DNA of 36,955 nucleotides from Eledone cirrhosa (Eukaryota). The DNA lies in assembly GCA_964016885.1 (NCBI GenBank), contig CAXHJY010001616.1, positions 1 through 36,955 on the forward strand, in the 5' to 3' direction. Position 1 is the stretch's first letter; every line of letters begins with the position of its first letter. The notes under the pieces were generated by a model that had not been told where the DNA came from, did not search any database, and saw nothing but the letters and a program-made list of their open reading frames with translations. The position numbers and the translations under genes were made by a program. Of the stretch, positions 3,430-11,100 are shown one piece after another.

Positions 3430-3731
3430 ACAAAAAAATGGCGTAGACATACAACACAACAGGAGGAACAATGAATATAACACCACTGACGATGTTGCAG
3501 ATGTGCAACGAAAGATTTATGTAAACTATATATATATGTGTTTGTCTATATTGTATCTGTATTATTTTTGACCGCCGGTCAGTCAATGGCAACATTGAGG
3601 ACCGAGTAAGCTAGATCGCAGATATATATATATAAAAGACAGCGAGAAGCGAAAACCAACCAAACAGTGAGTGTGTTCTGTTATTAATTCTGGCAATATT
3701 ACGCAAATATGACCCTCCCCAAATATAACAA
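3430..3731 (+). mobile_element. Short hammerhead-bearing non-coding element in (TA)n, related to the fold-back at 34580-34905
   Basis: Terminus ATGACCCTCCCCAAATATAACAAT matches ATGACCCTCCCAAAGTATAACAAT at ~34880-34903; upstream GTGAGTGTGTTC / AGCGAAAACCAAC also similar; TA on both sides. Confidence 0.65.
3478..3542 (+). ncRNA. Hammerhead ribozyme-like motif, stem I disrupted
   Basis: CTGACGA 3486-3492, T, stem II GTTGCA/gatg/TGCAAC, GAAA 3510-3513, near-palindromic stem III, CTA 3526-3528; 3' stem I replaced or expanded by TA repeats. Confidence 0.6.
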
Positions 3732-4744
3732 TATATATATATGAATATATATATATATATATGAATATATATATATACATATATATATGAATATATGAAT
3801 ATATATATATGTATATATATATATATGAATATATATATATATACATATATATATGAATATATATATATACATATATATATGAATATATATTTATATATAT
3901 ATATATGAATATATATATATATATATATATATATGAATATATATATATATATATATGAATATATATATAATATATATATATATAATTATACATATATATA
4001 TATATATATAATATAATTATACATATATATATATATATATATATATATAATTATACATATATATATATATATATATATATATATATATATATATATATAT
4101 ATATATATATAATTATACATATATATATATATATATATATATATATATATATATAATTATACATATATATATATATATATATATATATATATAATTATAC
4201 ATATATATATATATATATATATATATATATAAATATATATATATATATATATATATATATAATAATTATACATATATATATATATATATATATATATATA
4301 TATATATAAATATATATATATATATATATATATATATATAATTATACATATATATATATATATATATATATATATATATATATATAAATATAATATATAA
4401 ATATATATATATATATATAATTATACATATATATATATATAAATATATATAAATATATATATATATAAATATATATAAATATATATATATATAAATATAT
4501 ATAAATATATATATATATATATATATATATAATTATATATATATAAATATATATAAATATATATATATATATATATATATATAATTATATATATAAATAT
4601 ATATATATATATAATTATAACATATATATATATATATAATTATACATATATATATATATATATAATTATATATATATATATATATAAATATATATAAATA
4701 TATATATAATTATACATATATATATATATATATATAATTATACA

Positions 4745-5052
4745 TACTCTTTTACTCTTTTACCTGTTTCAGCCATCCGGCTGAGGCCATGCTGGGGCAC
4801 CGCCCTTGTTGCTACACATTTTATCTCCAGCCTGTATAGGTTGGCCACTGGTGTAGGAGGGAGTTTGTTGCTGCTGCCCTTAGGTTTCCCTCGTGTCTTG
4901 CTGTGGGCTCATCCGGGATCCTGGATAACAAGGTGTCGAGATGTTTCTTAAAGACATCCACCTCCACGTCATGCAAGTCTCGCAGATGCCTCGGCAGCCT
5001 GTTTGAAGAGTTGAGCGCCCTTGAATCCCAGGCTATTGCAATACCTGCTCCT
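4745..5052 (-). mobile_element. 3' end of CR1/L2-group LINE (ORF2 C-terminus + stem-loop + (GTAAAAGA)n tail)
   Basis: Minus-strand translation with a frameshift: SLGFKGAQLF..LPRHLRDLHDVEVDVFKKHLDTLLSRIPDEP..AAATNSLLHQ; hairpin CAGCC-ggat-GGCTG then short tandem tail. Confidence 0.7.
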
Positions 5053-5196
5053 TATTATATATATATATATTTAATTATATATATATATATATATAAATAT
5101 ATATAAATATATATATATATATATATATATATATATATATATATATATATATATATATATATATATATAATTATACATATATATATATATATATAT

Positions 5197-5340
5197 AACG
5201 GAGGAAATGTGGTAAGGAACCAGGTGGACCATAACGCACCAAAGTACTCAATACTTGAGGTAGTAGAGTGGGTAATAGGAACCAGTAAGGCCCCGACAGC
5301 TGAGCTCAAGCCGTTTCGACGGCTAATTCTGGACTAAAAT
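5197..5340. mobile_element. Dispersed (TA)n-associated repeat, copy 1
   Basis: Near-identical to 8391-8500 and to the reverse complement of 32739-32861; same terminus abutting (TA)n. Confidence 0.85.
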
Positions 5341-6174
5341 ATATATATATAATTATACATATATATATATATATATATATAATTATACATATATATATAT
5401 ATATATATATATATATATATATATATGTATGAATATATATATAATTATACATATATATATATATATATATATATAATTATACATATATATATATGAATAT
5501 ATATATGAATATATATATATATATATATATATATATATATGAATATATATATATGAATATATATATATGAATATATATATATATATATATATAAATATAT
5601 ATATATATATATATATATGATGTTCAATATCTATGTAATTAAATATTCAACATACGGTAAATTAATTCACAAAAGCCATATGTGAAACAAACATAACAAC
5701 ATTTTATTAGTAAGACATTGGTAACATTCCTGATTGTCTTATTGAATTGACAAAAATACAACCAGACACAAGAAAGCCGTACAACATATGTAAAAAACCC
5801 TAGCAAATTCATACAATTTAATTGGTTTCTACATTGGTTTGTTTAGTCATTCATTTATGTATTTCTTCATTCATGAGAATTATATTAAGACAAGACTTAA
5901 CTGAAATGATAAATGTATATTGTTTTGCATAAAATTCCGGGAATAATCAATTTAACTACAGTTGTGGTTATGTTTCTTATGAAACAGTTACAAAACAAAA
6001 GAGATTTAAAACATACTTTTTTCATATTCATAAGGAACCTTAAATCAAAATATTTCATGGTTGTTTAATTTGACCACTGTAAATACCAAAATGTTCAACT
6101 TTGACCTATGTGCTTGGACACAATATCTAACTTGTTTTTTCTTGAATTAATTTGTATCAATTAAGTACATTTGA

Positions 6175-6600
6175 CTCTCTCTCTCTCTCTCTCTCTCTCT
6201 CTCTCTCTCTCTCTCTCTCTCTCTCTCTCTCTCTCTCTCTCTCTCTCTCTCTTTATATATGTGTGTATATATGTACATATATGTGTGTATATATGTACAT
6301 ATATATGTATATGTATATGTATATATATATGTATATGTATATATATATGTATATGTATATATATGTATATGTTAATATATATAAATATATATAAATATTT
6401 ATATATATTTACATATACATATATATATATTTATATAAATAATTATATCAATATATATATATATGTATGAATATATATATATATATATTTGTGTATGTGT
6501 GTGTGCGTGTGTATGTGTAATCTGTGTTTTCCTAATATTAATAACAATATTCGATTCTTTATACATATATATATATATATATATATATATATATATATAT
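6175..6600. repeat. (CT)n followed by TA/TG compound microsatellite
   Basis: Visible. Confidence 0.95.
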
Positions 6601-6869
6601 AAGTTTGGTTGTTCACCACTGGATAGAACTGGTCAAACAGTATAGCCAACGATGATATACTATTAAGAAAAAGACTCGACTTCATGCAAATCTAACCAGC
6701 AGGGTAGCAGGAATAAGCATACAACCCCAAAATAAAAATGATGAGAGTTTGAGAGTTGTCACTGGAAGGCGGTCACCCTAACTGGCAAGAACTGACGCAC
6801 TTGATCGCCTTGGAGTGTGATCCTCTTGAGTTGTGTTTACCATTATTCGTTTATTATATATTTATTATA

Positions 6870-6939
6870 CAATAAACACCTGATGATGTGACCAGGATCT
6901 TAGGTAACCTGGCCACTGAAATGTACATAGTGGTTGTTG
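6870..6939 (+). ncRNA. Minimal type I hammerhead ribozyme
   Basis: Stem I CAATAAACAC/GTGGTTGTTG, CTGATGA 6880-6886, stem II GTGACCAGG/CCTGGCCAC, GAAA 6918-6921, palindromic stem III ATGTACAT, cleavage triplet AUA (after 6929). Confidence 0.75.
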
Positions 6940-9544: not shown

Positions 9545-9607
9545 ATTTCATCTGATGAAAGCGCACCATAATTTGCCTTGGTTGCCCATGAAATATATAT
9601 AATAAAT
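9545..9607 (+). ncRNA. Degenerate hammerhead-like motif
   Basis: CTGATGA 9552-9558, imperfect stem II GCGCACCA/TGGTTGCCC, GAAA 9590-9593, TATATA-TA, bulged stem I ATTTCAT/ATAAAT. Confidence 0.4.
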
Positions 9608-9925
9608 AAATATGGTTTCATAAATATAGTTTCCATTTATTAATATATTGTATACATATATATATATATATATGTATATATATATATATATATATACATA
9701 TATATATATAAATATAAGTATATACACGTACATACATATATGTATACGGACGTACAGTAGTATGTATATATATATATATATACATACATGCACACATATT
9801 TATATGTACGTATGGATTCACTGAACATTTATTATAATGCTCGGTGTGTTTGTAAACAAACATCCCGTATTAAGCCGTAGAGTCTAGCAACCATCGTTGC
9901 TCGTTTGTTCAACACTGACAAAGGA

Positions 9926-9968
9926 ACGCTGTACTAGTTTCAAGCTTATTAGCTATCGTCAGCAACGT
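9926..9968 (-). ncRNA. Minimal type I hammerhead ribozyme
   Basis: Reverse complement reads ACGTTG CTGACGA T AGCT-aata-AGCT T GAAA CTAG TA CAGCGT. Confidence 0.8.
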
Positions 9969-10335
9969 ATACCTCCCTGCCAGATGGTTGAACCTAAATA
10001 CTTACCTTATGCATATTAACGGCTGAGTAGCCTAATTTGCATATCGAGTGGGTTAAATGGCCGGATTCACCGACAATGATAAACGGAAAAAATGAAACGA
10101 AATTTCATTTCCCACTCTTATTAAGGCTGTTACTTAAATATAAGTATGTACACGTACATACATATATGTATACAGACGTACAGTAGTATGTATATATATA
10201 TATATATATATATATGTACGTATGGATTCACCGAACATTTATTATAATGCTCGGTGTGTTTGTAAACAAACATCCCGTATTAAGCCGTAGTATCTAGTAA
10301 CCATCGTTGCTCGTTTGTTCAACACTGACAAAGGA

Positions 10336-10378
10336 ACAATGTACTAGTTTCAAGCTTATTAGCTATCGTCAGCAACGT
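10336..10378 (-). ncRNA. Minimal type I hammerhead ribozyme (weakened stem I)
   Basis: Same core; 3' stem I is CATTGT instead of CAGCGT. Confidence 0.7.
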
Positions 10379-10529
10379 ATACCTTCCTGCCAGATTGTTG
10401 AACGTATATACTTACCTTACGCATATTAACGGCTGAGTAGCCTAATTTGCATATCGAGTGGGTTAATCGGCCGGGTGCACCGAGAACGATAAAAGGAAAA
10501 AATGAAACGAAATTTAATTTCCCGGGTAT

Positions 10530-10572
10530 ACGTTGCTGACGATAGCTAATAAGCTTGAAACTAGTACAGCGT
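10530..10572 (+). ncRNA. Minimal type I hammerhead ribozyme
   Basis: ACGTTG, CTGACGA 10536-10542, AGCT/AGCT stem II, GAAA 10557-10560, palindrome ACTAGT, GUA cleavage after 10566, CAGCGT. Confidence 0.82.
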
Positions 10573-10884
10573 TCCTTAGCCAGTGTTGGACAAACGAGCA
10601 ACGATGGTTGCTAGACACTACCGCTTAATATGGGATGTTTGTTTACAAACAGACCGAACATTATAATACATGTTCGGTGAATCCATACGTACATATATAT
10701 ATATATATGTGTGTGCATGTATGTATATATATATACATACTACTGTACGTCTGTATACATATATGTATGTACGTGTACATATTTATACTTAAGTAACAGC
10801 CGTACTAAGAGTGGGAAATGAAATTTCGTTTCATTTTTTCCGTTTATATATATATATATATATATATATATATAATATATATAT

Positions 10885-11100
10885 AATACAAGATCAAAAT
10901 ATGGTTAAAGGAGTTCCATGTATTTTATTATGCGCATTTCAAAAACAAACATCATCATGCAATAATATTTGTGTTTTCATCAGATAAAACAGGAGAACAT
11001 GATATGAAGGTTAAAAAACACTTGTGGATAGTGCAGTTTTAAATCAACATGTTGATTTAAAACTGCATTATCCACAAGTGTTTTTTAGCCTTCACATCAC
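10885..11100. mobile_element. Second copy of the palindromic hammerhead element, right arm truncated
   Basis: Matches 8780-8998; centre TTTTAAATCAACATGTTGATTTAAAA is a perfect palindrome. Confidence 0.85.
10921..10991 (-). ncRNA. Minimal type I hammerhead ribozyme
   Basis: Core and stems II/III identical to 8817-8887; one G-U change in stem I. Confidence 0.78.

Follow-up and report, generated by a model that had tools for sequence, protein, structure and literature searches.

How did nine hammerhead ribozyme motifs come to lie within 7.5 kb of one contig of Eledone cirrhosa (CAXHJY010001616.1, assembly GCA_964016885.1)? The contig was analyzed at its whole length of 36,955 bases, here called the window, and belongs to a 3.0-Gb genome. 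Its range 3478-10991 is a patchwork of short repeats separated by TA microsatellites, and the original prediction, made from the sequence alone, regarded it as a hotspot of minimal hammerheads from several unrelated families of non-autonomous retroelements. The reading favored here, with a probability of about 90%, is that the nine motifs are hammerhead folds at the 3' ends of six insertions in TA repeats. Four insertions (families A, C, C and D) are read as truncated ends of protein-coding Penelope-like elements (PLEs), one (family E) as a retrozyme that lacks an open reading frame (ORF) and is likely copied by the same enzymes, and one (family B) as a copy of an old family without assignment.

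Nine pairs of the cores CTGANGA and GAAA were recognized in the range. They are distributed among five repeat families, designated A (3486, plus strand), B (6880, plus), C (8879, minus; 9014, plus; 10983, minus), D (9552, plus) and E (9962 and 10372, minus; 10536, plus), and among six insertions, one insertion being able to bear two or three arms. A full descriptor, which requires both stems I and II, a stem III complementary to itself and a UH cleavage site, was passed by eight of the nine motifs and failed by the one at 9552. The original prediction had counted seven complete and two imperfect motifs and had proposed a comparison with shuffled sequence. In 1000 dinucleotide shuffles of 3401-11050, the mean number of descriptor matches was 0.006 with a maximum of 1, against the eight observed, and shuffles without the microsatellites gave a mean of 0.004 and again a maximum of 1. 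Bare core pairs had shuffle means of 0.05 and 0.20 (maxima 2 and 3), against nine observed. The descriptor was composed after the motifs were seen, and reversed genomic sequence is the fairer control: on 570 kb of genomic tiles, the descriptor found 40 matches, and one match on the reversed sequence.

The total of nine was confirmed, and so were the stem III palindromes named at the outset, ATGTACAT for family B, ATGCGCAT for family C and ACTAGT for family E. The division into complete and imperfect copies has to be redrawn. Stem I is broken in two copies called complete, at 6880 (3 bp, then a mismatch) and at 10372 (2 bp, then a mismatch), and the motif at 3486, called imperfect, is not decayed, as a 2-bp stem I and a wobble stem III are the norm for its family. 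Altogether stem I is damaged in three window copies, and the features of a minimal type I hammerhead are found at the level of the families. Rfam returned no hammerhead for the window among the best 150 of 265 matches listed, and none at E ≤ 10 on 9880-10120 (family E) or 6820-6990 (family B); on the TA hairpins it gave microRNA-like noise alone. A further CTGAAGA, at 7756, lacks a downstream GAAA partner, and none of the genomic loci examined contains a copy of it.

Family A is represented by a 5'-truncated 3' end (pseudo-long terminal repeat, pLTR) at 3432-3730 on the plus strand, flanked by TA runs. Over 299 nt this copy matches the ends of 4.15-kb tandem units at 99.3% identity. Its hammerhead (3484-3521, plus; predicted cut after 3519), found with the descriptor, has a 2-bp stem I, an extra U, a 6-bp stem II with G10.1-C11.1 and a wobble stem III. 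The 4.15-kb units encode a reverse transcriptase (RT) and a GIY-YIG endonuclease in open frames of 1130 and 1097 aa. The protein has a long Asn-rich N-terminal insert and, at 997, a CX4CxxC linker, and two Cys separate its GIY-like motif from YIG; a C-terminal GIY-YIG combined with CCHH and a CX2-5CxxC linker is thus present. Its best named match is an RT-domain protein of Octopus vulgaris (69% identity), and a PDB sequence search with it gave no meaningful match. By these motifs the protein fits the Neptune or Nematis clade, and the window copy is assigned as the end of an autonomous PLE. A two-armed stump of a family A relative is seen by direct reading at 34580-34970; it has the last ~25 bases and the tail in common and is truncated below the hammerhead.

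Family C contributes two insertions. The first (8782-9197) is two-armed, with a minus arm at 8782-8948 that ends at TA and a plus arm at 8943-9197 with a tail of ~90 nt, and is 93-96% identical to the ends of ORF-bearing copies. Both arms have hammerheads that pass the descriptor: 8817-8887 on the minus strand, with an 8-bp stem I, a long stem II and a palindromic 8-nt stem III (predicted cut after 8825), and 9006-9076 on the plus strand (predicted cut after 9068). The second insertion (10883-11099), recognized by the descriptor and the repeat structure, consists of a minus arm at 10883-11050 with a hammerhead at 10921-10991 and a plus arm ended at 11099 by another repeat. Elsewhere in the genome, ORFs with an RT plus a GIY-YIG at the C terminus lie between inverted pairs of family C hammerheads. 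The unit is 3.3-3.9 kb with a 3' untranslated region (UTR) of 1.07 kb, and a TA run follows 87-191 nt past the core start in 27 of 30 loci. The protein, for which 18 homologues were found, is encoded by a single open frame of 821 aa and contains YRDD followed by a GIY-YIG-like motif. It has RLRW at 35, with the K of RWK replaced by T or I, DKT at 122 in place of DKG, CxCX5C at 659, CxxC at 759 and CxH at 787; GxKF and CCHH are absent, and a single Cys lies between GIY and YIG. DKT, CxCX5C, CxxC and CxH, together with the lack of GxKF and CCHH, are marks of the Hydra clade (PMC8557442). The family C motifs are accordingly classified, by motifs and not by a tree, as 5'-truncated 3' ends of an autonomous Hydra-type PLE. 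In the endonuclease part, all 150 scored genome matches are 98-100% identical and nine lie within an 821-aa open frame, which marks family C as young on sequence grounds. Identity with Naiad, which has an N-terminal GIY-YIG and no canonical hammerhead, was considered and rejected, as the endonuclease is C-terminal in both A and C.

Family D (9510-9652, plus; core at 9552) is the member whose window copy fails the descriptor. At one extended locus, broken RT/endonuclease remnants 49-55% identical to those of C lie upstream on the same strand; the 3' UTR is common to several copies, and no intact ORF was seen. The window copy is probably the truncated 3' end of an older Hydra-type PLE. The kinship of C and D rests on the proteins and a common stem I design, because blastn aligns no C ends with D ends at E < 1 × 10−5.

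Family E has no ORF. Its unit of 420-430 bp is tandemly repeated, twice in the window and five times at another locus (L079), and sister families have units of 466-469 bp, one of which forms a 31-unit array. The unit folds far better than its shuffles (z = −6.3). The window insertion (9709-10847), delimited by its repeat structure, comprises a minus arm at 9709-10523 with two tandem units at a spacing of 410 nt and a plus arm at 10525-10847 with a tail. Three hammerheads were found with the descriptor: the outer tandem copy at 9926-9968 (minus; predicted cut after 9932), with a 6-bp stem I, a U...U closure of stem II and ACTAGT as stem III; the inner tandem copy at 10336-10378 (minus; predicted cut after 10342), in which stem I has the mismatch; and the copy of the inverted arm at 10530-10572 (plus; predicted cut after 10566). 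Family E is classified as an ORF-less tandem retrozyme with a hammerhead in each unit, for which transcription, self-cleavage and accumulation of a circular RNA would be expected. Upstream of the hammerhead, at 10010-10065 and 10420-10480, E and a sister family (L127) have in common a GAAAT..ATTTCGTTTC hairpin and an ACTCAC..TATGCAAATTAG block. The block holds a word presumably of the octamer type, and hairpin and block are possibly an internal promoter for the next unit.

Family B (6601-6996, plus) is old and has fixed ends. Its insertion consists of an inverted tail end at 6601-6692 on the minus strand and a sense arm ending at a TA run, with no ORF. The hammerhead (6877-6932, plus; predicted cut after 6929), found with the descriptor, has a U...U closure of stem II, an 8-nt palindromic stem III and the mismatch in stem I. 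No ORF was found in 60 loci. An autonomous partner was sought in the same 60 loci; two held Hydra-type remnants, whose positions do not prove a link, and the candidate was dropped. Family B is possibly non-autonomous.

Published PLE insertions are 5'-truncated, partly tandem and often provided with an inverted arm, and have a tail at one end (PMC8557442). In vitro, reverse transcription has two internal start sites, and the tail corresponds to the segment that separates them (PMC11167929). Among 30 inverted pairs of family C, the tail is present on exactly one arm in 25, on neither in three and on both in two (p = 1.6 × 10−4). The E insertion and the first C insertion in the window each have one tailed and one untailed arm. 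Of 48 distinct E outer arms, 41 include the body, and 24 of these stop at the main end while 17 continue through the tail; an automatic pair finder caught three E pairs, all one-tailed. Where tandem units of A or C meet, the order is hammerhead, end, tail and ORF start, and the 5' boundaries of A, C and D vary as they do under truncation. In A, C and E the main end coincides with a short TA-like word, and from these words target priming by microhomology appears possible.

Two loci join the retrozyme to PLE arms. At L193, an arm of an E sister family is joined head to head to a C arm of 99% identity, and at L060 an E arm is joined in the same manner to an arm of a 70%-identical Hydra-type relative; there is no TA between the arms at either locus. 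Both junctions fit a single insertion from two RNAs, and a deletion between neighbors would look alike. A junction between E and A at L174 was rejected as a single insertion, as a short TA stretch between the arms indicates two insertions.

A mechanism consistent with this footprint can be proposed. The PLE endonuclease would nick TA-rich DNA, as may be drawn from PMC8557442 and PMC11167929, and the RT would prime within its RNA at either of two fixed positions, namely the main end or the tail end. Both strands of the DNA would be extended, and most copies would stop after 100-400 nt. An early stop would leave the hammerhead-bearing end alone, often doubled head to head. In tandem copies, the palindromic stem III would let two hammerheads pair, and the resulting dimer would cut, probably at a slow rate or aided by protein, and release an RNA of unit length that may circularize. 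The lone and head-to-head stumps of the window (A, B, C and D) would then be inert passengers, and only the two tandem E copies, one of them with a damaged stem I, could pair in cis. The scheme of nicking, priming and extension was demonstrated in vitro for another clade, and it is the most likely explanation of the footprint here.

The original prediction had placed the motifs among the minimal type I hammerheads of the PLE and retrozyme kind, with stems that differ in sequence and yet stay paired. Cores, UH site, stems and palindromic stem III are indeed present, and covariation was found across the genomic copies. For the stem analysis, motifs were picked by core and stem III alone, which gave 106 distinct motifs in the group with an 8-letter stem III. 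Positions 1-6 of stem I are paired in 100, 103, 90, 92, 88 and 88 of them, and positions 2, 3 and 5 of stem II in 103, 105 and 84, with A-U, G-C, U-A and G-U all occurring. Position 4 of stem II is unpaired in 105 of the 106; this conserved internal mismatch (C-C or C-U) is perhaps the docking site for a tertiary contact. The E group was aligned as 19 sequences, namely 18 of its 23 distinct motifs and one window copy. In this alignment 88.7% of the cells are paired and six pairs are changed on both sides; its covariation score was reached in none of 500 shuffles, and slid registers gave at most 43% pairing. The stem III words do not fold alone and form only between two copies, with dimer energies of −10.5 kcal/mol for ATGCGCAT of C, −7.0 for ATGTACAT of B and −4.8 for ACTAGT of E, as had been expected of a dimer-type stem III.

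Cutting at the listed UH sites is a prediction, and several observations weigh against the reading given here or against a part of it. The permutation controls ignore the kinship among copies, which inflates them. Stem III of family A gains no dimer energy (0.0 and +1.4 kcal/mol), and co-folding of two copies gave the full dimeric fold in family C only, with other pairings in B, D and E. The G10.1-C11.1 pair, in the direct register, occurs in 9 of the 106 and 2 of the 23 distinct motifs; among the window families, A alone has G-C there, with an extra 5' base, B and E have U...U, and C and D have A-U. According to PMC4209133, the monomer of a minimal PLE hammerhead was not cut and the dimer showed weak cutting, and one of nine dimer retrozymes of Xenopus cut in a recent preprint (10.64898/2026.07.22.740005). 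The hammerhead of the anole PLE cut only with protein, insertion in vitro did not depend on it, and RNA-seq gave no reads with an end at its site (PMC11167929). On the protein side, a Pfam-A scan of three PLE proteins returned no family, and the clade names depend on motifs and not on an RT tree. The lack of an ORF in the loci of B belongs here as well.

These points give some room to the view that the folds are retained and no longer cut, either as signals by which the PLE enzyme binds protein or positions its template, or as inert relics multiplied with young elements. The prevalence of non-canonical 10.1-11.1 pairs, the undiminished in vitro insertion of anole hammerhead mutants (PMC11167929), the eight Xenopus dimers that failed to cut and the uncut junction kept by inserted copies all agree with it. 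Against it, the core letters are fixed while the stems covary across many families. Moreover, two further families, F and G, use a U3-A8 core and a relative of F a C3-G8 core, which is the swap expected if a catalytic 3-8 pair is selected. The loss of cutting is thus possible and rather unlikely. The U...U closure of stem II was also considered as a new variant and rejected, as it is the form that Hydra hammerheads commonly have in a published table (PMC8557442).

A second alternative, and the view taken by the original prediction, is that all five families are non-autonomous retrozymes spreading as circular RNAs. The window copies are short and have no ORF, family E is truly tandem and ORF-less, and family B combines fixed ends with the negative ORF search. 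The ends of A and C, however, run straight into open RT/GIY-YIG frames elsewhere, which refutes this view for both, and D lies downstream of Hydra-type remnants and has 5' boundaries that vary as in truncation. As a statement on all five families it is highly improbable. The term non-autonomous holds for E and possibly for B, and fails for A and C, which have open frames in other copies, and probably for D with its upstream remnants. The families are unrelated only in part, as C and D encode Hydra-type proteins of ~50% identity and the U...U closure listed for Hydra hammerheads is found in B and E.

Whether the cluster itself has a meaning can be judged from the rest of the genome. Exact 25-mers of C and E have 10,200 and 11,743 genome matches; at ≤2 mismatches A has 15,225 and D 13,608, and at ≤1 mismatch B has 249. 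Every reversed-pattern control of these per-family counts was 0. A pattern of the core with an 8-letter purine-pyrimidine stem III has 107,825 matches (control 214) and one of the core with ACTAGT has 40,347 (control 7), so that the two patterns together recover at least 148,000 hammerheads genome-wide (controls 221). An independent sample of 57 ten-kb tiles, at round coordinates on large contigs, contained 40 descriptor motifs of many families, or 70 per Mb, which corresponds to ~210,000 genome-wide (95% interval 150,000-286,000). Published counts are ~9,000 for Xenopus tropicalis and 2,000-9,000 per genome (PMC4209133), and more than 6,000 in one coral and up to 120,000 in the far larger axolotl genome (PMC7229834).

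The association with TA noted at the outset was borne out. TA runs lie at or adjoin the ends of all six insertions by direct reading, and a TA run lies within 300 nt downstream of 33 of the 40 tile motifs, against 597 of 2850 random positions (21%). The motif counts of the tiles rise with their TA content (Spearman 0.44, p = 5 × 10−4), and TA repeats make up 22% of the cluster region against 4% of the tiles. A functional locus, such as a co-transcribed ribozyme array or a source of small RNAs, might be suspected from the eight descriptor matches, where 0.54 are expected from the length and 1.75 from the number of TA blocks, and where the densest of the 57 tiles had four. These eight matches, however, represent five insertions, for which P is ~0.03 against 1.75 expected, before any correction for a region chosen by its density, and the copies have mixed orientations and differing ages, with several damaged. 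Because the matches track TA content, the region is TA-rich and eight matches amount to five insertions, a nest of insertions explains the cluster, and a functional locus is very improbable. The term hotspot is therefore replaced by a local pile-up of a genome-wide population in a nest of two-armed insertions that is rich in TA. An unplaced 37-kb contig rich in microsatellites might raise the suspicion of an assembly artifact or of chance matches in low-complexity DNA, and both can be practically dismissed, as shuffles give at most one match, which refutes chance, and the same families occur thousands of times on large contigs with reversed controls of 0.

Further repeats were recognized in and around the nest. 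Family F, absent from the original prediction, represents the ends of a further Hydra-type PLE; its full core has 4,487 genome matches. The hammerhead of this family has a U3-A8 core, and its stem III of 5 bp could fold as a monomer. It occurs in the window at 5199-5340 (minus strand; truncated inside stem II, without the first half of the core), as a shorter copy at 8392-8502, and at 32700-32840; most copies, those of the window included, are truncated or fold back inside stem II. Family G (8505-8750), likewise absent from the original prediction, is a two-armed piece of a 345-bp ORF-less tandem repeat (L150) with a U3-A8 hammerhead and a hairpin stem III. Its window copy starts inside stem III and is without the core, and the family is a second retrozyme candidate. 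Another U3-A8 hammerhead repeat has four copies in one tile (L237), three of them at a spacing of 592 bp.

Two more TA-flanked repeat families with fixed ends are present at 9250-9490 and 11090-11270 (9 and 139 matches among the loci examined), with no complete hammerhead in these copies. The minus-strand 3' end of an element resembling a long interspersed nuclear element, with an (AAAGAGT) tail, is inserted in TA repeats at 4748-5055 and 11319-11352; the element is presumably CR1-like. At 11470-12400 (cores at 11500, minus, and 12364, plus), a two-armed element has its hammerhead parts in the scrambled order of cleavage site, GAAA and CUGAUGA, which is the SGC order of PMC10085705. In 11 matches (reversed controls 4), an 8-bp stem I and a stem III of 3-4 bp are maintained and covary; the local stem II is weak, and the element has 5,792 genome matches (control 0).

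The locus itself is ordinary, a nest of retroelement stumps, and its value is that of a sample of a very large population. It is judged somewhat better than an even chance that this genome holds ~150,000-290,000 minimal hammerheads (50-95 per Mb), denser than the published counts found, together with a still-active Hydra-type PLE and ORF-less retrozymes whose footprint likewise has two ends and a single tail, and which in some cases adjoin a PLE arm head to head. If true, this would amount to direct evidence from the genome for the copying of retrozyme RNA by PLE enzymes, and would supply a matched pair of enzyme and substrate for testing. Both the mobilizer of animal retrozymes and the role of the PLE hammerhead are open questions in the literature covered (PMC7229834, PMC8557442, PMC11167929 and the 2026 preprint). 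Both could be tested in a single system here, where a retrozyme occurs together with a young Hydra-type element that has many open frames and leaves the same footprint. Annotation is affected as well, since these motifs escape Rfam and short stumps with two arms resemble miniature inverted-repeat transposable elements or microRNA hairpins.

No literature on hammerhead numbers or retrozymes in octopus was found, and supplements, Dfam and Repbase may cover these families. Among the top results for octopus hammerhead ribozymes, Craig et al. was the sole PLE study; the word retrozyme was absent among the top results for cephalopods, and the main text of an Octopus vulgaris repeat annotation (PMC13282606) has no occurrence of ribozyme or hammerhead. 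What may be new is the density of the motifs and a retrozyme that bears the insertion footprint of a PLE.

Several known systems can be compared with these families. The pLTR hammerheads of metazoan PLEs (Cervera and De la Pena 2014, PMC4209133) have the same type I order and a tiny palindromic stem III that needs a dimer. They also form many sequence families per genome, mostly as single truncated copies, with close opposite-strand pairs and the U3-A8 variant. Family A resembles the form of Drosophila virilis, with a 2-bp helix I, a 6-bp helix II and an extra 5' base. The differences lie in number, 2,000-9,000 per genome against at least 148,000 here, and in the G10.1-C11.1 pair, which that paper calls highly conserved and which is rare in B, C, D and E.

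Family E is comparable to the metazoan non-LTR retrozymes (Cervera and De la Pena 2020, PMC7229834; Li, Clavereau and Pollet 2026, preprint 10.64898/2026.07.22.740005). In both cases the tandem unit is ORF-less, low in GC and highly self-paired, each unit has one type I hammerhead, arrays extend from dimers to long multimers, and autonomous PLEs are present in the same genome. Family E differs in its unit of 420-430 bp (sisters 466-469 bp), its minimal Hydra-style hammerhead and its two-armed, tailed insertions. In the sources cited for those retrozymes, the link to PLEs rests on co-occurrence and similarity to pLTRs. The Poseidon PLE of Anolis carolinensis (Frangieh et al. 2024, PMC11167929) is similar in its two internal starts, which give a main end and a tail, in the extension of both strands and in its AT-rich target, and differs in belonging to another PLE clade.

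The closest known system to family C is the Hydra clade (PMC8557442). Both have an RT with a C-terminal GIY-YIG, DKT, the CxCX5C linker and CxxC/CxH, and both lack CCHH and GxKF; insertion in (TA)n, a hammerhead near the 3' end and an inverted truncated arm with a tail are also common to both. Many hammerheads listed for the clade in the supplement have the closure CTGANGAT...TGAA, as B and E do. Family C has RW followed by T or I, against K in the clade, and a unit of 3.3-3.9 kb with a 1.07-kb 3' UTR, against published Hydra elements of generally <3 kb. One member of the clade, Hydra-1_Obim, was described from Octopus bimaculoides with a (TA)n preference and a listed hammerhead (Craig et al. 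2021, PMC8557442). Its hammerhead and N-terminus, compared by eye, differ from those of C, which indicates a different family, and four copies ending at one site are tabulated for it, against more than 10,000 young copies of C. The supposition that these elements were possibly uncatalogued in this lineage may hold for their sequences and does not hold for their kind, which is already known, octopus included.

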